From positions 1 through 8,976 of the IMG/VR virus record IMGVR_UViG_2778261459_000009: a stretch of 8,976 nucleotides of DNA, one strand, 5' to 3'. Made by a program: the position numbers and the translations under genes. The notes beneath the pieces were generated by a model, which did not search any database, was not told where the DNA came from, and was given only the letters and a program-made list of their open reading frames with translations. Positions 1 through 8,976 of the stretch are shown piece after piece; within the stretch, counting starts at the first letter, position 1; each line of letters starts with the position of its first letter. This DNA comes from a virus (Duplodnaviria > Heunggongvirae > Uroviricota > Caudoviricetes).

Positions 1-294
1 TCAGAACTCCATCTGGATTTGTTCAGAACGCTCGGTTGCCGCCGGGCGTTTTTTATTGGTGAGAATCGCAGCAACTTGTCGCGCCAATCGAGCCATGTCG
101 TCGTCAACGACCCCCCATTCAAGAACAGCAAGCAGCATTGAGAACTTTGGAATCCAGTCCCTCTTCCACCTGCTGATCTGCGACTTATCAACGCCCACAG
201 CTTCCGCTGTCTTCTCAGTTCCAAGCATTGCGATTTTGTTAAGCAACGCACTCTCGATTCGTAGAGCCTCGTTGCGTTTGTTTGCACGAACCAT
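1..294 (-). CDS. cII: Transcriptional activator CII (97 aa), lambda-type
   Basis: The - strand ORF from the Met at 294-292 reads MVRANKRNEALRIESALLNKIAMLGTEKTAEAVGVDKSQISRWKRDWIPKF...ERSEQIQMEF, which matches lambda CII as I recall it. The stop is the complement of 1-3. The upstream sequence on the - strand is TAAGGAAATACTTACAT before the ATG. The longer track ORF (start 354) is an in-frame upstream extension with no ribosome-binding site. Confidence 0.93.
   Translation of the reverse strand: MVRANKRNEALRIESALLNKIAMLGTEKTAEAVGVDKSQISRWKRDWIPKFSMLLAVLEWGVVDDDMARLARQVAAILTNKKRPAATERSEQIQMEF
29..56 (+). terminator. Intrinsic terminator-like hairpin plus T-tract on the strand antisense to the cII 3' end; consistent with the 3' end of an OOP-like antisense RNA whose 5' end would lie left of the window
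   Basis: Stem about 29-35 (cgctcgg) pairing with 42-48 (ccgggcg), including one G-U pair, then tttttta at 49-55. The position opposite the cII C-terminus matches my recollection of where lambda oop terminates. Confidence 0.5.
272..285 (+). promoter_or_regulatory. CII-binding direct repeat TTGC-N6-TTGC, the -35 region of a pRE-like promoter directing transcription on the + strand toward cro and cI
   Basis: ttgcgtttgtttgc, with TTGC at 272-275 and 282-285, lies inside the 5' end of cII on the opposite strand, as in the lambda pRE arrangement. Confidence 0.55.
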
Positions 295-328
295 ATGTAA
301 GTATTTCCTTAGATAACAATTGATTGAA

Positions 329-350
329 TGTATGCAAATAAATGCATACA
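329..350 (-). other. Perfect 8-bp inverted repeat (tgtatgca / tgcataca) with a 6-nt spacer in the cro-cII intergenic leader, in the tR1 / cII-leader position
   Basis: The arms are 329-336 and 343-350 with aataaa between them. It sits between nutR and the cII ribosome-binding site. Confidence 0.4.
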
Positions 351-373
351 CCATAGGTGTGGTTTAATTTGAT

Positions 374-405
374 GCCCTTTTTCAGGGCTGGGATGTGTAA
401 GAGCG
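374..405 (-). promoter_or_regulatory. nutR N-utilisation site: boxB hairpin plus boxA
   Basis: On the - strand, boxA CGCTCTTAC is the complement of 397-405, and boxB GCCCTGAAAAAGGGC is the complement of 374-388, a 5-bp stem with a GAAAA-containing loop. It lies just downstream of cro, as in lambda. Confidence 0.75.
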
Positions 406-413
406 GGAATGTC

Positions 414-1770
<1,357 letters not shown>

Positions 1771-1820
1771 TCCCCACCTCAATCTCGATAACCAAAAAAC
1801 AAACTATTTTCCGTTTAAAA

Positions 1821-1834
1821 ACAATGGAGTTTGT
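1821..1834. promoter_or_regulatory. Operator OL3 (434-type 14-bp site)
   Basis: ACAATGGAGTTTGT, ACAA-N6-TTGT. Confidence 0.65.
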
Positions 1835-1851
1835 TTTTCATACCCCTTTTT

Positions 1852-1865
1852 ACAATATTTCTTGT
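1852..1865. promoter_or_regulatory. Operator OL2 (434-type 14-bp site)
   Basis: ACAATATTTCTTGT. Confidence 0.7.
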
Positions 1866-1894
1866 TTACAACATACAATCTTTCTTGTAATTTT
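1865..1894 (+). promoter_or_regulatory. Putative pL promoter (-35 TTTACA about 1865-1870, -10 TAATTT about 1889-1894)
   Basis: The hexamers are about 18 bp apart, overlap OL1 and OL2, and lie upstream of nutL and N on the same strand. The assignment is by eye only. Confidence 0.35.
1875..1888. promoter_or_regulatory. Operator OL1 (434-type 14-bp site), overlapping the putative pL
   Basis: ACAATCTTTCTTGT. It is the site closest to N. Confidence 0.7.
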
Positions 1895-1933
1895 AAGCCA
1901 TCAGCAGGACGCACTGACCACCATTGAAGGTGA

Positions 1934-1964
1934 TGCTCTTAAAAATTAAGCCCTGAAGAAGGGC
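1934..1964 (+). promoter_or_regulatory. nutL: boxA-like element plus boxB hairpin
   Basis: tgctcttaa at 1934-1942 is boxA-like. GCCCTGAAGAAGGGC at 1950-1964 is the lambda nutL boxB (5-bp stem, GAAGA loop). It lies about 160 bp upstream of N. Confidence 0.8.
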
Positions 1965-2122
1965 AGCATTCAAAGCAGAAGGCTTTGGGGTGTGTGATAC
2001 GAAACGAAGCATTGGCCGGAAGTGCGAATCCGGATTAGCTGCAAATGAGCCAATCGTGGGGTGTTTTCGTTCAGGACTACGACTCACACACACCACCAAA
2101 GCTAACTGACAAGAGAATCCAG

Positions 2123-2446
2123 ATGGATGCACAAACACGCCGCCGCGAACGTCGCGCAGAGAAACAGGCTCAATGGAAAGCAGCAAATCCCCTGTTGGTT
2201 GGGGTAAGCGCAAAACCAGTTAACCGCCCTATTCTCTCGCTGAATCGCAAACCGAAATCACGAGTAGAAAGCGCACTGAATCCGATAGACCTTACGGTGC
2301 TGGCTGAATACCACGAACAGATTGAAAGCAACCTGCAACGTATTGAGCGCAAGAATCATCGAGTTTGGTATAGCAAGCCAAGTGAGTTCGGTATAACTTG
2401 TCAAGGAAGACAAAAGGTTAAAGGGAAATCCATTCCATTGGCATGA
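2123..2446 (+). CDS. N: Antitermination protein N (107 aa), lambda-type, with arginine-rich boxB-binding motif
   Basis: MDAQTRRRERRAEKQAQWKAANPLLVGVSAKPVNRPILSLNRKPKSRVESALNPIDLTVLAEYH... closely matches lambda N as I recall it. The track ORF start at 2045 is an upstream in-frame extension. Confidence 0.92.
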   Translation: MDAQTRRRERRAEKQAQWKAANPLLVGVSAKPVNRPILSLNRKPKSRVESALNPIDLTVLAEYHEQIESNLQRIERKNHRVWYSKPSEFGITCQGRQKVKGKSIPLA

Positions 2447-2454
2447 GGTACGTA

Positions 2455-3324
2455 ATGAAGAAAATTGATTACAAGTCCATACCAAAACCAATAGACTCAG
2501 CATCAGAGCGAAAAAAACACAAAAAAGAGGCTGAAAAATTAGCAAATTATATCAGTTTTATTAGAAACAATGCTCACGGCGATGGCGACAGGAAGTTGCT
2601 TTCAGATGCCCGGACCCAAGCGTTCAGTATACTTCGTAAGCAGATGCAATATCGTCTTCATCCTGGCTACATAATTGAAATTCGCCCGACTGAAAGACAA
2701 TTGTTCTTATTAAACTCTGTCTTTGACTTTGTAAACGTAGTTGGAGATCTTATCGACAGGTCTGTAGATAAGGCTCCTGATACAAATAGTTTTCTTCTAA
2801 CAAATAAAGAATACTTATATGGTAAATTTGGTATAAACGGATGGCAAAAATATGTACGATTCTTACGTGCATTCGTTGATGCGTATAAAAATTCCGACAT
2901 GATTTATACATATTTGCCTGGTGGTGATAATTGTACGCTTTCGGCAGACAATAGAATATTCATACCTATACTTGGTCTTGGGCTGATTAATGCAGTAAAT
3001 GAAAGAGATGTTATAATTGTTAAGCAGTGGCGAAAGCATGAGGGATATAGATATCTGCCATGCTTTGATATATTAAAAATACAGAATAAATTCTATGTAA
3101 AAATTAAATATAAAGAAGATGTTTTCTTCCTCAGAAAAAACAAAGATCTTTTACAAGAACTTTCTGGGACAATAGATGTCATCGTAGGTTCTAGGTTTAT
3201 AAAAGAACTGAAAGAAAGCAGGTCTTTCTCTCGTGTAGAGATAAGCGAGTCAGAGTTATGGGGTATATCAAATAATCCTGTAAACCACGCTCACCAACGA
3301 AATCCAAACAAAAAGTGGTCATAA
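2455..3324 (+). CDS. AT-rich cargo gene of unknown function (289 aa) immediately downstream of N, in the position of lambda sieB/ral; candidate superinfection-exclusion or defence protein
   Basis: A 293-codon ORF begins at 2443; the likely start is the ATG at 2455, with a GAGG ribosome-binding site at 2446-2449. The base composition is visibly lower in GC than the flanking N and cIII regions, with long runs of AAA/ATA codons. I see no transmembrane segment and no motif I can name. A hairpin terminator follows directly. Confidence 0.75.
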   Translation: MKKIDYKSIPKPIDSASERKKHKKEAEKLANYISFIRNNAHGDGDRKLLSDARTQAFSILRKQMQYRLHPGYIIEIRPTERQLFLLNSVFDFVNVVGDLIDRSVDKAPDTNSFLLTNKEYLYGKFGINGWQKYVRFLRAFVDAYKNSDMIYTYLPGGDNCTLSADNRIFIPILGLGLINAVNERDVIIVKQWRKHEGYRYLPCFDILKIQNKFYVKIKYKEDVFFLRKNKDLLQELSGTIDVIVGSRFIKELKESRSFSRVEISESELWGISNNPVNHAHQRNPNKKWS

Positions 3325-3349
3325 CCCGCTCAGGCGGGTTTCATTTTCA
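3323..3349 (+). terminator. Rho-independent terminator after the AT-rich gene
   Basis: Stem aacccgc (3323-3329) and gcgggtt (3334-3340) with loop tcag, followed by the T-rich run tcattttc. Confidence 0.6.
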
Positions 3350-3466
3350 CGCAAACAACAGAATAAACACTGCACTGTGTATTCATTCCAACGAGTGAAT
3401 ACACGGAGCAATGTCGCTCGTAACTAAACAGGAGCCGACTTGTTCTGATTATTGGAAATCTTCTTT

Positions 3467-3909: not shown

Positions 3910-4221
3910 ATGATGATTCTGACTCTGAATGATAAGCGTGAAATATCGCAAATAATCGCAAGTTTTACTGATGAAGATTACGAACGAATCAACAGTGAAG
4001 TTGATCGCCTCTGCAAACGTTGCGACCCAATAAGCGAAATGCTTCGCTCATATAAACCAGATGAACATACTAAGGATGCTATCGACTGGCTGGAAGATGA
4101 TGACTGTAACTATCAGGAAAAAGCCGCTGAATGGTTCTGGGATGCAATAACCGAAAGAGTTAAGGCTGAATATGCCTTCGCAATATTTAAACGCAGACAC
4201 ATTTTTGGAGAAGCTGCATGA
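3910..4221 (+). CDS. Acidic hypothetical protein (103 aa) with a CxxC pair, immediately upstream of recT
   Basis: An AGGAG ribosome-binding site lies 4-7 nt before the ATG at 3910/3913. The stop overlaps the recT start (ATGA at 4218-4221). The protein has about 24 Asp/Glu against about 15 Lys/Arg, and includes CKRC. Confidence 0.65.
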   Translation: MMILTLNDKREISQIIASFTDEDYERINSEVDRLCKRCDPISEMLRSYKPDEHTKDAIDWLEDDDCNYQEKAAEWFWDAITERVKAEYAFAIFKRRHIFGEAA

Positions 4222-5120
4222 GCAATATCGTTGAATTCGTTAAACAGCAAGAGCAGTTATTCTGCGGAGCATTGACTGAACAGACGGTGACATGGGCTAA
4301 GGAAAGCCAGTTTGCAATTCAGTATTTCCAGAAAAACGATTACCTGGCTAAAACAGCACTGGCAAATCCAACCAGCGCACAGAACGCCATCATCAATGTT
4401 GCGGCGATCGGCATCACCTTAAACCCGGCCAGCAAACTGGCTTATCTGGTTCCTCGCGACGGCATGGTGTGCCTTGATATCAGTTACATGGGATTACTTC
4501 ACCTTGCACAGTCGACAGGATCAATTAAGTGGGGGCAATGCAAACTGGTGTACTCAAACGACACCTATGAATCAAACGGCCTTGATTCAGCACCAACCCA
4601 CAAATACAACGCATTTGGTGAGCGAGGCTCTATTGTTGGTGGTTATTGTACGGTTAAAACAGCAGATGGTGACTACCTCACTGAAGAAATGAGTCTGGCA
4701 GAAATTAAAGCTGTGGAAGCAACGAGCAAGGCAAAGAATGGACCGTGGAAGACATTCTGGGAAGAGATGGCGCGTAAAACAATAGTTAAACGCGCCAGCA
4801 AATACTGGCCTAAAGCCCAGCGACTGGATAATGCCATTCACCTGCTTAACGAAGATGAAGGTATGCATCAGGAACCAGTTATGCCGCACAAATCAGAGGA
4901 AGATATCCGCGAAGATGAACGGAAACGCCAGCAGGAAATTATGGAAAAAGCACAACTTCTTTGTGATGAAATGGTTCAGGCAGAAAACATGGATGATTTG
5001 AAGCGATATTTTGCAGAAGCATATCGCCTGACATCTGGAATGAAATTGCAGCAGAACGTACAAGCCATTTACATAGAATGCAAAGCGAAACTGGAGGTTG
5101 CCAGTGAGCAAACTGTATGA
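4218..5120 (+). CDS. recT: RecT/Red-beta family single-strand annealing protein (300 aa)
   Basis: NGPWKTFWEEMARKTIVKRASKYWP closely parallels the NGPWVTHWEEMAKKTAIRRLFKYLP segment of E. coli Rac RecT as I recall it. The overall length and layout fit the RecT family. Confidence 0.85.
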   Translation: MSNIVEFVKQQEQLFCGALTEQTVTWAKESQFAIQYFQKNDYLAKTALANPTSAQNAIINVAAIGITLNPASKLAYLVPRDGMVCLDISYMGLLHLAQSTGSIKWGQCKLVYSNDTYESNGLDSAPTHKYNAFGERGSIVGGYCTVKTADGDYLTEEMSLAEIKAVEATSKAKNGPWKTFWEEMARKTIVKRASKYWPKAQRLDNAIHLLNEDEGMHQEPVMPHKSEEDIREDERKRQQEIMEKAQLLCDEMVQAENMDDLKRYFAEAYRLTSGMKLQQNVQAIYIECKAKLEVASEQTV

Positions 5121-5586
5121 AATTGCCAATGAATACGCAAAATTGATGGATTCAGATTTAGAACCAGAGATGATTGCTGACACAATAGAAGGCATGGAAG
5201 GAGAATTTACCGATAAAATAGAGCAACTTCTTTCCGTCATTAAAAATGAATCTGGTTATGCTGAACGCCTCAAGGAAGAGGCAAAGTCACTGAATGAGCG
5301 AGCCGCAGTAATTCAAAATAAGATTGACAGCATCAAATCATATATAGCGTCATCGCTTGAAATGGTTGGCAAGAAAAATATTCGAGCAGGTATTCACCAG
5401 GTAACAATCCGCAAACCGTCAGAAACTGTAGAAATCATCGACTCAAGCGCCCTTCCTCCTGAATACGTTGAGTTTGAAACGACAATTAAAGCCGACAAAC
5501 TGGCAATCAAACACCAACTAAAAGCAGGAATAAATATCCCCGGCGCTCAACTCAAAGTTGGGAAACCTTCACTTCTTATCAAATAA
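5104..5586 (+). CDS. Gam-like / Siphovirus Gp157-family protein (about 160 aa), a putative host-nuclease inhibitor partner of RecT
   Basis: Likely GTG start at 5104 with a GGAGG ribosome-binding site at 5093-5097; the track gives a TTG at 5098. It has a coiled-coil-like N-terminus and a C-terminal part that resembles Mu-Gam/Gp157-type proteins found next to annealing proteins. The family assignment is from memory and is tentative. Confidence 0.55.
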   Translation: MSKLYEIANEYAKLMDSDLEPEMIADTIEGMEGEFTDKIEQLLSVIKNESGYAERLKEEAKSLNERAAVIQNKIDSIKSYIASSLEMVGKKNIRAGIHQVTIRKPSETVEIIDSSALPPEYVEFETTIKADKLAIKHQLKAGINIPGAQLKVGKPSLLIK

Positions 5587-5597
5587 CGGTATCGCCT

Positions 5598-5912
5598 ATG
5601 AAAAAGACTCCATGGGAGAAATGGGAAGTCGATTTCTTGCGCGAAGTAGCGGCGACAATGCCAGTTGAAGTTATCGCTGAAAAACTGGAAAGGACTGAAA
5701 AAGCAGTAATGGCGAAAGCAACAAGGATTGGAGCTGACATTGTTAGCCGACTTCGTGGAAGACGCTGGACAAGAGCCGAAGTATCACTTTTCGGTAAGTT
5801 CTCCGCAGAAGAAATAGCAATTGCAACCTGCCGCTCAATTTATTCAGTAAGAGCTATGCGATACAAGCTAAAAAAACTCGATGAAGAAAGAGCAGGCATA
5901 CGAATAAATTAA
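5598..5912 (+). CDS. Hypothetical protein (104 aa) with two tandem roughly 35-aa helix-turn-helix-like repeats
   Basis: The internal repeat is [37 protein letters not shown] against [37 protein letters not shown], with a shared W..EV..L......EEIA..L.R(T/S)..AV.A pattern. Confidence 0.6.
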
Positions 5913-5928
5913 CAAAGAGGAATTTACC

Positions 5929-6093
5929 ATGAGAGGACTTGCATACAATCCCGGCATTCTTCCGGCAGAAATGATTATTCGCCAACGCGTAAAGCCAATG
6001 CCATCGAGAGAGGAATTGCTTAAGAGAAATTCTTTTCCGTCAGTGAATCAAAACAAATATCTGAATGCGATGTGGCGGAGTGGGAAGAAATGA
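5929..6093 (+). CDS. Small hypothetical protein (54 aa), not in the supplied track; translationally coupled to the next gene
   Basis: ATG at 5929 with an AAAGAGG ribosome-binding site 7 nt upstream. The stop TGA at 6091-6093 overlaps the ATG at 6090-6092 of the downstream gene (ATGA). Confidence 0.45.
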
Positions 6094-6524
6094 AACAAAT
6101 GTCACTAATTGAGATGGATGGATTTCTGAAAGGTAGATGCATCCCACGAGATTTAAAGGTTAACGAAACAAACGCTGAATATCTGGTGCGTAAATTTGCT
6201 GAAGCGGAGGCCAAGTGCGCGGCGCTGGCAGCGGAGAATGCGGCAATGCATGAAACTATTGAAGCCGTTCGGAGTGTTGCGGATAACTCCAGTGGAATTG
6301 CCGGATGGCATTTGAATGGCGATATCGCTACATGGGAAGAGATTCTTCCTGAAATTAACGATATCGAAACCACAGCCACCGACGCTTTCCTGGCTGAAGT
6401 ACGGGCGAAGGGCGTGGAGATGGCTATGGAGCATATGCAGTCGAGCGGTTCGTTTTCATTTGGAGATTGCTACATATCACTTAACGAGTTCGCCGCCCAG
6501 CTTCGCAAAGGAGACAACCAGTGA
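6090..6524 (+). CDS. Hypothetical protein (144 aa)
   Basis: [15 protein letters not shown]..., with an Ala/Glu-rich helical centre. The track start at 6072 is a GTG; the ATG at 6090 is the better start because of the coupling overlap. Confidence 0.65.
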
Positions 6525-6745
6525 GCGGAAAAAGAATGACTAACAGAGAGCTTGTCGATGCCGCGATTAAGCTTGCTGGTGATTTTTATTCAATGATGGG
6601 GTACACGCATCGCCCAGGCTTCAAATATTGGGAGTCTCCTCACCCGCAAGAGCAACAGGTATTTCAAATGGCCTGCCGTGCTTTTGAGGTTATTCGCGGT
6701 TCTGATGTGATGGACGCCGTTGCCGACTTGGAGGATGAAGAGTGA
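6521..6745 (+). CDS. Hypothetical small protein (74 aa), GTG start
   Basis: The GTG at 6521 overlaps the upstream stop (GTGA). An AGGAG ribosome-binding site at 6509-6513 lies 7 nt upstream. Confidence 0.6.
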   Translation: MSGKRMTNRELVDAAIKLAGDFYSMMGYTHRPGFKYWESPHPQEQQVFQMACRAFEVIRGSDVMDAVADLEDEE

Positions 6746-7311
6746 ACAAGATTGACTATCAGGCACTGCATGAAAAGGCAGAGAAAGCAACGTGGGGAGA
6801 CTGGGACTCATATAAACCACACCGTGGCGCACGTGGTTATGAGGTCCGACTAAGTAGTCAGGCCATTGCGCAACACGTTCTGAAAAACAACGCTGAATTT
6901 ATTGCTGCCTTTAATCCAAAGGTTGCTTTGGCACTACTGGATGAACGGGAAAGAAACCAGCAATACATCAAACGCCGCGACCAGGAGAACGAGGAAATTG
7001 CGCTAACGGTAGGGAAGCTGCGTGTTGAGCTGGAAGCCGCAGAGGAGCGCATTGCAGAACTGGAAAGCAACGAAGTCCGTGAAGTCGGAAATCAGTTTCT
7101 TGTTGTTCGCCATCCTGGGAAAACTCCTGTCATCAAGCACTGCACTGGTGACCTGGAAGAGTTTCTGCGGAAGTTAATCGAACAAGACCCGTTAGTAACT
7201 ATCGACATCATTACGCATCGCTATTACGGGATTGGCGGTCAATGGGTTCAGGATGCAGTTGAGTATCTGCATATGATGTCTGACGCTGGCATTCGCATCA
7301 AAGGAGATTGA
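6742..7311 (+). CDS. Ea22-like (ead/Ea22 family) early-region accessory protein (189 aa), GTG start
   Basis: The GTG at 6742 overlaps the upstream stop (GTGA). A GGAGGA ribosome-binding site lies 6 nt upstream. The N-terminus IDYQALHEKAEKATWGDW and the central coiled coil resemble prophage Ea22-like proteins as I recall them; this assignment is tentative. Confidence 0.55.
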   Translation: MNKIDYQALHEKAEKATWGDWDSYKPHRGARGYEVRLSSQAIAQHVLKNNAEFIAAFNPKVALALLDERERNQQYIKRRDQENEEIALTVGKLRVELEAAEERIAELESNEVREVGNQFLVVRHPGKTPVIKHCTGDLEEFLRKLIEQDPLVTIDIITHRYYGIGGQWVQDAVEYLHMMSDAGIRIKGD

Positions 7312-7312
7312 T

Positions 7313-7798
7313 ATGACCACTTTCACCGACAAAGAAATGATTAAAGAAATCAAAGAACGCATAGGCAGCCTGGACGCTCGAGACAATATTGAGCGCCGTG
7401 CTTATGAAATTGCTCTGGCATCGCTGGAAGCAGAGCCGGTGGCGTGGAGGGTAACATTCACGCAAATTGACCGTGAATATAACACGTTCACTGGTATGTA
7501 TTCTGACAAAGCAGAAGTCGAACGGTGGGTGCGGCTGCATAAAGCATGTAATTTTCGGGCAGATATAACACCGCTTTACACCGCCCAGCCAGTTCCGGTA
7601 ACTCCGGATGGTTGGATTCCGGTAAGCGAAAGGATGCCGGAACCTTATGAATACGTTCTTGTAACTGATGGTTTTGATGGCTGTGAGGTTATGCGTGTTA
7701 ATACAGATGGCTACTGGGGGCCAGCAAAGAGTTTATATCCAGGTAGTATTACCCACTGGATGCCACTGCCAGCAGCACCGCAGCAGGAGGTGAAGTGA
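7313..7798 (+). CDS. DUF551-domain protein (161 aa)
   Basis: The C-terminal region DGWIPVSERMPEPYEYVLVTDG...GYWGP...ITHWMPLPAAP matches the W..V.E.LP...VLV....W....THWMPLP signature of DUF551. An AAGGAG ribosome-binding site lies 6 nt upstream of the ATG at 7313. Confidence 0.75.
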   Translation: MTTFTDKEMIKEIKERIGSLDARDNIERRAYEIALASLEAEPVAWRVTFTQIDREYNTFTGMYSDKAEVERWVRLHKACNFRADITPLYTAQPVPVTPDGWIPVSERMPEPYEYVLVTDGFDGCEVMRVNTDGYWGPAKSLYPGSITHWMPLPAAPQQEVK

Positions 7799-7986
7799 GT
7801 ATGAGTGCATCACTTATAACCGCCTTCAATCAAAGTGCAAATCCAAGCAATGAGCAGGTTGTTGTGTTCGGCTGGATTGCTGAGTATTTCGAAAGCATTT
7901 TCGACGATGAATCCGCTAGGTATTGCAGGAATATTTCTGAATCACTCAAAAATCAGGTTTCTGCTCAACAGGTGGTGAAGTCGTGA
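7795..7986 (+). CDS. Hypothetical small protein (about 61-63 aa)
   Basis: The GTG at 7795 overlaps the upstream stop, with AGGAGG just upstream. An alternative ATG lies at 7801. Confidence 0.5.
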   Translation: MSMSASLITAFNQSANPSNEQVVVFGWIAEYFESIFDDESARYCRNISESLKNQVSAQQVVKS

Positions 7987-8201
7987 GCAAGCACATCATC
8001 AAATATGACTATCGAGAGGGAGTTAAACTCCCTAAGCACGAGATTGAGACATGGTGCGGTCATCGGCCAGGGTCATTCGAATGGCTTTTTCAGGATGCTC
8101 AGCATGCGCTATTGAGCATTGATCAGGGAACGCTGCTTGTTCCTTGCAAGAATTGTCTGGCAGCAATCATCAAAACGGCGCAGGAGGTTAACCGTGGCTA
8201 A
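7983..8201 (+). CDS. Hypothetical small protein (72 aa) with a C-x-H ... C-x2-C arrangement, a possible zinc-binding fold
   Basis: The GTG at 7983 overlaps the upstream stop (GTGA). The translation contains ETWCGHRPG and VPCKNCL. Confidence 0.55.
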   Translation: MSKHIIKYDYREGVKLPKHEIETWCGHRPGSFEWLFQDAQHALLSIDQGTLLVPCKNCLAAIIKTAQEVNRG

Positions 8202-8478
8202 CCTGCAACTTGCCGTCAACGGTGAATACTTCGATGCCATGATTAGCGGAGAGAAAACGGAAGAGTATCGCCTGTGTAATGACTACTGGAATAAGCGAAT
8301 TATGTTCCGTGAGTATGACCGCCTGATTATCACAAAGGGATATCCGAAGCGCGACGATTCCAGCCGCAGAATTGATGTTCCGTATGACGGATATGAAATC
8401 AAGACAATCACACATCCGCACTTCGGTGATAAACCGGTAAAGGTGTTCGCGATAAAGGTGAATATAGGCAATGAATAA
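8194..8478 (+). CDS. ASCH-like (DUF3850-type) domain protein (about 94 aa)
   Basis: GTG at 8194 with an AGGAGG ribosome-binding site 6 nt upstream. The N-terminus ANLQLAVNGEYFDAMISGEKTEEYRLCND parallels the ...EYF.A..SG.KT.E.R.ND pattern of phage ASCH/DUF3850 proteins. The track ORF start at 8119 is an upstream extension through the preceding gene. Confidence 0.6.
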   Translation: MANLQLAVNGEYFDAMISGEKTEEYRLCNDYWNKRIMFREYDRLIITKGYPKRDDSSRRIDVPYDGYEIKTITHPHFGDKPVKVFAIKVNIGNE

Positions 8479-8550
8479 CAATCCTCGCACTCGCGGGGAT
8501 TTCTTTTATCTGAACTCGCTACGGCGGGTTTTATTTTATGGAGATGATAA

Positions 8551-8718
8551 ATGCACTTCCGAGTCACAGGTGAATGGAATGGAGAGCCATTCAACAGAGT
8601 TATCGAAGCAGAGAACATCAATGACTGCTATGACCACTGGATGCTATGGGCGCAGATAGCACATGCAGACATAACCAATATTCGAATTGAAGAACTGAAA
8701 GAACACCAAGCCGCCTGA
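8551..8718 (+). CDS. Small hypothetical protein (55 aa), not in the supplied track
   Basis: ATG at 8551 with a GGAG ribosome-binding site 7 nt upstream. The translation is MHFRVTGEWNGEPFNRVIEAENINDCYDHWMLWAQIAHADITNIRIEELKEHQAA. The stop sits inside the terminator hairpin that follows. I prefer this to the overlapping track ORF 8471-8659, whose translation is low-complexity. Confidence 0.45.
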   Translation: MHFRVTGEWNGEPFNRVIEAENINDCYDHWMLWAQIAHADITNIRIEELKEHQAA

Positions 8719-8731
8719 TGGCGGTTTTTTA
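8710..8731 (+). terminator. Rho-independent terminator closing the early-left gene chain
   Basis: Stem gccgcc (8710-8715) and ggcgg (8720-8724) with loop tgat, followed by tttttt at 8725-8730. Confidence 0.65.
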
Positions 8732-8775
8732 TTACCTGATTTGCAGGTTCGATTCCCTATTCGGAGATAGCACTC

Positions 8776-8976
8776 ATGCAACACGAACTACAGCCTGATT
8801 CACTGGTTGATTTGAAATTCATCATGGCCGATACTGGCTTCGGTAAAACCTTCATCTACGACCGGATTAAGTCCGGCGACCTGCCAAAAGCCAAAGTTAT
8901 CCACGGGCGAGCAAGATGGTTATATCGTGACCATTGTGAATTCAAAAATAAGCTCTTAAGCCGCGCCAATGGGTAA
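8776..8976 (+). CDS. xis: AlpA/Xis-family excisionase-like DNA-binding protein (66 aa)
   Basis: DLKFIMADTGFGKTFIYDRIKSGDLPKAKVIHGRARWLYRDHCEFKNKL has the winged-helix pattern of AlpA-type prophage excisionases. The stop codon is the last three bases of the window, which is where an integrase gene would be expected to follow. Confidence 0.7.
   Translation: MQHELQPDSLVDLKFIMADTGFGKTFIYDRIKSGDLPKAKVIHGRARWLYRDHCEFKNKLLSRANG

Follow-up and report, generated by a model that had tools for sequence, protein, structure and literature searches.

INTRODUCTION

The described systems closest to the locus studied here are the Abc1 protein of phage P22 and the D5 protein of phage T5. [quoted passage not shown] For T5 D5, DNA binding with an effect on replication or transcription is known from its GenBank record, which calls it a DNA-binding protein needed for both replication and late transcription, and from the title of a paper (McCorquodale 1979) cited in PMC12630848. 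In phage Gally, a gene has been named abc1 (PMC9928086), and a recT-gam-abc1 deletion of this phage still gives virions and lysogens (PMC9928086).

In this study we analyzed a stretch of 8,976 nucleotides of caudoviral DNA (IMG/VR record IMGVR_UViG_2778261459_000009, in the following called the window) that encodes a 104-aa protein identical to the Gally product. Identical proteins are annotated in phages Gally, mEpX1, HK140 and Louie, under different names: in Gally as 'Anti-RecBCD protein 1, similar to P22 gp35 Abc1', and in the RefSeq phage records of mEpX1 and HK140 as 'transcriptional regulator, D5-like'. The gene is intact in 299 of 5426 complete E. coli genomes (∼5.5%), where PGAP labels its product 'hypothetical protein'. 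A tblastn search of 50,697 phage records returned only relatives of at least 91% identity. The protein is already catalogued and named (abc1 / D5-like), and it is biochemically uncharacterised.

RESULTS

The gene and its operon

The window corresponds to the leftward early (pL) region of a lambdoid prophage. Its immunity is that of phage 434: bases 1-3400 match the immunity region of this phage (cII, cro, cI, N) at 98.3% identity. Genes of the pL operon abut or overlap all along the window. The open reading frame (ORF) of the 104-aa protein opens with the first start codon that follows a stop, and the product has a computed pI of 10.0 and a mass of 12.1 kDa. Its start lies 11 nt behind the gp157 stop and its end 16 nt before the start of the DUF2737 gene (Table 1). 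Beyond DUF2737 follow an EaE-like phrog_614 gene, an Ead/Ea22-like gene, a DUF551 gene and others, up to an excisionase-like ORF (8776-8976) at the right end of the window.

Table 1. Coordinates of the gene, its repeat units and its neighbors in the window, and recombination genes preceding its homologues
Feature	Position	Strand	Remarks
phrog_3486 gene	3910-4221	+	upstream of recT
RecT-family single-strand annealing protein gene (recT)	4218-5120	+	Pfam RecT 2.6e-33
Sipho_Gp157 / 'Mu Gam-like end protection' gene	5098-5586	+	Pfam PF05565 1.1e-37; phrog_253 3.5e-54
CDS of the 104-aa protein	5598-5912	+	stop codon 5910-5912; from the ORF list
Repeat 1, residues 6-45	5613-5732	+	helices 8-17, 23-30, 34-43 (AF2)
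Basic inter-repeat linker, residues 46-56	5733-5765	+	non-helical in AF2; pLDDT 71-78
Repeat 2, residues 57-98	5766-5891	+	helices 59-66, 70-77, 81-98 (AF2)
DUF2737 gene (HK97 gp38-like)	5929-6093	+	directly 3' of the 104-aa CDS; Pfam DUF2737 2.6e-31
Homologue P0030			after lambda-type Gam / phrog_21613 / YqaJ exonuclease
Homologues P0044, P0086, P0125			after DUF3799 or exonuclease VIII-like + phrog_11517
Homologue P0164			after Sak4-type AAA_24 + 104-aa gene
Homologue P0138 and the window			after RecT + Gp157
P22 Abc1			after Erf

Some further features of the window were noted. In the ORF with the TTG start at 5098, which overlaps the end of recT, the whole Pfam Sipho_Gp157 model (positions 1-162 of 162) is matched from residue 5 onward. 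Phage records give a shorter Gp157 product of 146 aa, equal to a start at window position 5146; since the Pfam model fits the ORF from TTG 5098, the start in the phage records may lie too far downstream. Three terminator-like hairpins with T-runs are clustered at 8480-8531 and 8708-8727, just upstream of the excisionase-like ORF, and the remaining operon is free of terminator-like hairpins on the + strand. Just after N, an ORF of 293 aa (2443-3324), which belongs to phrog_12139 and has no Pfam match, coincides with a low-GC island at 2401-3324 (GC 0.32-0.38, against ∼0.45 elsewhere in the window). In this stretch the matching phage 434 record lists a 'Nun C-terminal peptide-containing protein'; the ORF of the window has ...NPNKKWS as its last residues and could be a moron or exclusion gene. 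Finally, an ORF at 1294-1770, directly downstream of cI and overlapping its end, has a signal-peptide-like N-terminus and no Pfam match (phrog_2651) and sits where the immunity region has its rex/sie-type slot.

Two helix-turn-helix units in one small protein

The AF2 model of the protein (pLDDT 82.9) consists of two three-helix bundles, and its pTM of 0.47 is in keeping with a flexible link between two domains. The two halves of the chain differ in charge: residues 1-50, with repeat 1, have a pI of 6.2, residues 51-104, with linker and repeat 2, one of 10.9, and the linker is arginine-rich. Since the C-terminal half is strongly basic, repeat 2 is the likelier DNA-contacting module. The N-terminal half is the more conserved one; repeat 1 contains most of the positions found invariant in an alignment of 20 sequences (W6, E10, F13, I26, K29, L30 and R32). 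Its signature I26-A-E-K-L-E-R-T33 falls in the most conserved peptide of the family, I[AS]EKLER[ST].

Pfam gave the protein no match at the gathering threshold, its one hit being HTH_12 with 20.7 bits against a cutoff of 21.4; PF00249 found no match even at E<=10, and NCBIfam returned noise only. Among the 20 family members, Pfam at E<=0.01 gives only Sigma70_r4_2 and HTH_12. Sigma70_r4_2 appears below threshold in nine of these 20, with at best 25.1 bits against a cutoff of 25.7. When the family profile was compared with PDB sequences, weak matches to the HTH of NarL/RcsB were obtained (E 0.009-0.5), and matches to neuraminidase were spurious. Relatives with many repeats do pass Pfam Myb_DNA-binding (2e-41), Myb_DNA-bind_6 and Sigma70_r4_2. 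The Myb/SANT threshold (PF00249 / PF13921) is passed by the distant multi-repeat relatives P0053, P0059 and P0075, and P0085 also passes Pfam GcrA. The protein itself has the architecture that characterizes Myb/SANT repeats, a tandem of three-helix bundles of ∼50 aa in which helices 2 and 3 make up an HTH. The units are HTHs of a Myb/GcrA/sigma-region-4-like type, and the protein, with two of them, represents a minimal version. This assignment of fold and family we consider very probable.

As to the multi-repeat relatives, in P0053 (807 aa) nine near-identical 'PWTQEEDxFLKQNY...EIAEHLGRSEKAC' units are fused to an SF2 helicase (ResIII/Helicase_C), and P0059, P0075 and P0085 consist of nothing but arrays of this HTH unit. 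Proteins with 4-10 tandem units form a large, mostly unannotated prokaryotic or viral Myb-like repeat class.

The repeat is visible at the level of the family

A preliminary description of this DNA had seen a clear duplication of about 35 aa, with a shared W/E/IA..R motif, and had read it as two HTH-like modules in one polypeptide. The motif is indeed found in both halves, with small deviations: copy 1 reads W6...E10 V11..L14...V23 E V I26 A27..L30.R32 T33..A36 V37 and copy 2 reads W57...E61 V62.L64...A70 E E I73 A74..T77.R79 S80..S83 V84. The unit is longer than was thought, about 40-51 aa, as the copies have a period of 51 aa (W6 to W57); they are ∼25% identical and differ by a 4-residue indel. 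The self-alignment proposed as a check was not significant, its best local score of 21 being matched by 329 of 500 shuffles, and no repeat was found in the DNA of the gene. Because the single sequence gave no significant self-alignment, we turned to family profiles.

Profiles of the N-terminal and C-terminal halves, built from an alignment of 20 homologue sequences (A2), were compared by hhalign. They matched over 37 columns in the expected register with a score of 30.6 (P=7e-7, probability 92%), whereas column-shuffled controls had a mean of 8.9 +/- 2.0 and a maximum of 16.5, so that none of 200 reached the observed value. A third copy of the unit is present in relatives of 144-154 aa, in which repeats 2 and 3 match each other with P=9e-18 (hhalign). 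In a first database search, close homologues came from E. coli, Salmonella and Citrobacter, together with proteins of 151-153 aa that carry the third copy. An exhaustive HMM search of 1.84 billion representatives returned 3282 proteins at E<=1e-3, many of which have 300-900 aa and 4-10 matched stretches; homologues of as little as 33% identity retain the length and the motifs of the protein. Family profiles, the two-bundle model and multi-copy relatives agree, and they confirm that the duplication is real, although it was 'clear' only at the level of the family and cannot be demonstrated from the single sequence. The proposal of two HTH-like modules in one polypeptide is borne out by the AF2 bundles, the profiles and the relatives.

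A fixed place behind exchangeable recombination genes

Linkage was counted over 80 IMG/VR viral contigs carrying near-identical copies of the protein (at least 99% identical, and 100% in 77 of the 80). The gp157 gene lies directly upstream in 80 of 80, and recT is present in all 79 that have enough flank. The downstream genes are mosaic over the same 80 contigs: EaE-like was found in 37 (∼48% identity), Ead in 42, orf74 in two and orf63 in none, and DUF2737 follows immediately in 43 of 79 loci. Because RecT/Gp157 is retained while downstream genes vary over these contigs, the linkage is to the recombination module. In 36 of 79 IMG/VR loci (L013-L092), DNA is inserted between the gene and DUF2737. 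Louie and HK140 carry a 'replication initiation protein' at this site, Louie also an HNH endonuclease, and the 3' end of the gene is a mosaic junction.

Divergent homologues (33-57% identity) lie directly downstream of recombination genes of differing kinds, five unrelated cassette types in all when the window and P22 are counted (Table 1); as an exception, P0098 has no recombination gene upstream. Positions 3910-6524 of the window, locus L006 (3306-5841) and locus L009 share one scaffold of phrog_3486, a recombinase pair, the Abc1-like gene, DUF2737 and phrog_614, within which the pair is swapped between RecT+Gp157 and DUF3799/exoVIII+phrog_11517. The protein goes with more than one kind of recombinase, and the genes downstream of it are not the ones with which its linkage is conserved. 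The conserved position may also reflect a lambdoid scaffold around a swappable recombinase pair, with no shared function behind it.

Two observations on these neighborhoods may be added. The unannotated phrog_11517 and phrog_21613 proteins are probably the annealing-protein partners of the exonucleases. A Dam-type N6-adenine methylase (PF05869) stands directly downstream of P0030 (L005 5456-6007) and P0098 (L093 4288-4815), followed in L093 by a C5 DNA methylase; a methylase beside homologues of the protein is of interest because GcrA, the best structural match, reads methylated DNA.

Is the protein a regulator?

The preliminary description had further suggested that the protein regulates the downstream accessory genes. 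This finds no support, since there is no flanking promoter or operator and the downstream gene set is not conserved; thus only the structural half of that description, the two HTH modules, can be kept. In a promoter scan of 4200-8976 there were two sites against 7.3 expected in shuffles. No promoter-like site was seen near the gene or downstream of it (5207-8976), the nearest one being at 5177-5206 inside gp157. Operator-like inverted repeats or DNA repeats flanking the gene were not found, and neither were Chi sites in the window.

A broader version of this idea is that the protein is a sequence-specific transcription factor acting on the downstream ea genes or on promoters of the host, of a satellite or of a competitor phage. 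Several points speak for it: the HTH fold is of a DNA-binding type, PHROGs uses the label 'transcriptional regulator, D5-like', late transcription is affected by T5 D5, a perturbing effect of the P22 Abc1 HTH on transcription of the P4 satellite was put forward as a speculation by Silas et al., and NCBI calls Abc1 homologues sigma-70 family proteins. Against a local regulator stand the missing intergenic space, promoter-like site and inverted repeat nearby or downstream, together with the variation of downstream genes among phages that carry the identical protein. The sigma-factor version has against it that only a region-4-like module, with sub-threshold matches, is present and regions 2 and 3 are not. 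Taken together we hold a transcription factor of any of these kinds to be rather unlikely, and regulation of host or satellite promoters in trans to be a possible form of it. Membership of the sigma-70 family of sigma factors was rejected, as regions 2 and 3 are absent and the region-4-like module is reflected only in sub-threshold Sigma70_r4_2 matches of relatives.

Relationship to D5 and Abc1

The protein matches phrog_11492 with E=4.6e-23 (residues 4-93) and phrog_323, the 'transcriptional regulator, D5-like' family, with 2.8e-20 (residues 2-99 on profile positions 145-269). T5 D5 matches phrog_323 with 1.2e-71 over profile positions 3-270, and P22 Abc1 with 1.3e-23 over positions 93-190. 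BLASTP of the protein against P22 Abc1 gave no match. The A1 family HMM aligns residues 64-93 of the protein with residues 64-93 of Abc1 (P∼5e-5, 30 residues). In comparisons of profiles, our family aligned with residues 141-228 of T5 D5, which hold the last two units of D5 (probability 82%, P=1e-5), and by hhalign with the Abc1 family over 76 colinear columns that cover both modules (probability 88.9%, P=2.4e-6), links of moderate strength (82-89%) that may partly reflect generic HTH similarity and registers slipping in a repeat family.

A search for Abc1 homologues showed a narrow Salmonella family, in which all full-length matches are at least 70% identical. Besides these there was one 61-aa fragment (E 4.8e-6), and the search supplied no bridging sequences. 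In the AF2 model of an Abc1 homologue the second module is identical to ours (H54-65, 70-77, 81-93), and the first consists of one long helix and one further helix (pLDDT 55-82). The top-50 BFVD neighbor lists of the two models have 20 entries in common, mostly uncharacterised phage proteins of 100-120 aa. A distant relationship between our protein and Abc1 is probable.

DISCUSSION

Which function could such a protein have? The reading we prefer, and to which we give about an even chance, is that of a DNA-binding accessory protein with a link to the recombination module and two HTH units of the D5/Abc1 kind. The protein would be made early, from a gene that follows directly on the recombination cassette in the pL operon. 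It may bind duplex DNA in a bipartite manner, as the HTH pairs of c-Myb R2R3 and Tc3 do. Basic repeat 2 and the arginine-rich linker would supply most of the DNA contacts, and repeat 1, with its IAEKLER surface, might contact an adjacent groove or dock a partner protein. By analogy to Abc1 it could be a non-essential helper of phage DNA transactions, serving recombination-dependent growth or helping to cope with RecBCD, other host nucleases or defences, and would neither act on one specific recombinase nor switch the neighboring accessory genes. Such a helper role fits the viability of the Gally recT-gam-abc1 deletion, and because this deletion is viable any role of the protein must be dispensable. 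The parts of this reading differ in strength: DNA binding is rather probable, while a role linked to recombination or directed against nucleases is tentative and somewhat doubtful. One point against it is that repeat 1 is not basic.

A wider hypothesis, which we consider unlikely, is that Abc1/D5-like two-HTH proteins are recombinase-independent accessories at the distal edge of any cassette, be it RecT/Gp157, RecE-like/phrog_11517, Gam/YqaJ, Sak4 or Erf/Abc2. What they act on would be shared, a target in the host or a DNA structure (RecBCD-processed ends or a defence sensor, for instance), with repeat 2 on DNA and repeat 1 on a host protein. If true, this would give P22 Abc1 a mechanism.

SANT-type modules of the Myb-like fold bind proteins, not DNA. 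Hence one may ask whether the protein is a SANT-like adaptor with little or no DNA binding, which would use the invariant IAEKLER surface of repeat 1 to dock on RecBCD, in the way of an Abc2-type helper, or on RNA polymerase, as GcrA does. Within the family, conservation is highest in repeat 1, whose charge is close to neutral, and the retention of the family when the recombinase cassette changes points to a host or generic target. However, the overall pI is 10 with repeat 2 and the linker strongly basic, the archetype of the family, D5, binds DNA, AP-MS of Abc1 gave no clear partner and the sigma-binding C-terminal domain of GcrA is absent; a pure adaptor therefore seems quite improbable to us. 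The last alternative, a chance similarity in a single-domain helical protein or an ORF that is not a gene, could appeal to a self-alignment no better than shuffles and to a Pfam result limited to sub-threshold HTH_12, but it is refuted, and its probability practically negligible, given the strong repeat statistics of the family, the varying copy number of the unit among relatives, the two bundles of the model, and the conservation of length and motifs down to 33% identity in a gene intact in so many E. coli genomes.

The gain of our analysis is first of all one of annotation: a 'hypothetical protein' in ∼5.5% of complete E. coli genomes can be described as a Myb-like HTH protein with two repeats that belongs to the D5/Abc1 family. 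What P22 Abc1 does has been unsolved since 1987, and the family described here offers more tractable material for the function of the Abc1 class. It is well conserved and far more diverse than Abc1, has a sharp IAEKLER signature and keeps a fixed position beside interchangeable cassettes. The interest is modest, lying in the recombinase-independent conservation of position together with a diverse family, and the result will not surprise a phage biologist.

How does the locus compare with the known systems? Myb/SANT repeats such as c-Myb R2R3, CEF1/Cdc5 and SNAPC4 have tryptophans at the second and third Myb positions where our protein has I/L, and the known cases of these repeats and of the bipartite HTH of Tc3 are eukaryotic and functionally unconnected to the phage context. 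GcrA of Caulobacter (PDB 5yiu) has one HTH unit, whereas our protein has two; GcrA also has a C-terminal sigma70-binding domain and reads methylated DNA, while our protein has neither this domain nor a Pfam GcrA (PF07750) match and the window has no methylase gene. Membership of GcrA was rejected on the missing domain and Pfam match.

T5 D5 is built from the same type of repeat, with at least three units such as 'FTPDEETDFV...IEAIAAHFGRNIKQIRGKALSL', and is an early protein, as is the product of our pL gene. It differs in its length of 255 aa with more repeats, against 104 aa with two, in coming from the replication cluster of a virulent phage, where our gene stands beside the recombination genes of a temperate one, and in being reported as required, whereas our protein is dispensable, along with recT and gam, for virion production of Gally. 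P22 Abc1, like our protein, is a small basic protein of ∼100 aa with two HTH-like modules that belongs to PHROG 323, and in both phages the gene lies in the pL operon just distal to the recombinase gene, the order being erf-abc1-abc2-orf56-eaE in P22 and recT-gp157-(104-aa gene)-DUF2737-EaE-like in the window. The first module of Abc1 is without the W/E/IAEKLER signature, and the partners in P22 are Erf and Abc2, whereas in the window they are RecT and Gp157, with no Abc2.
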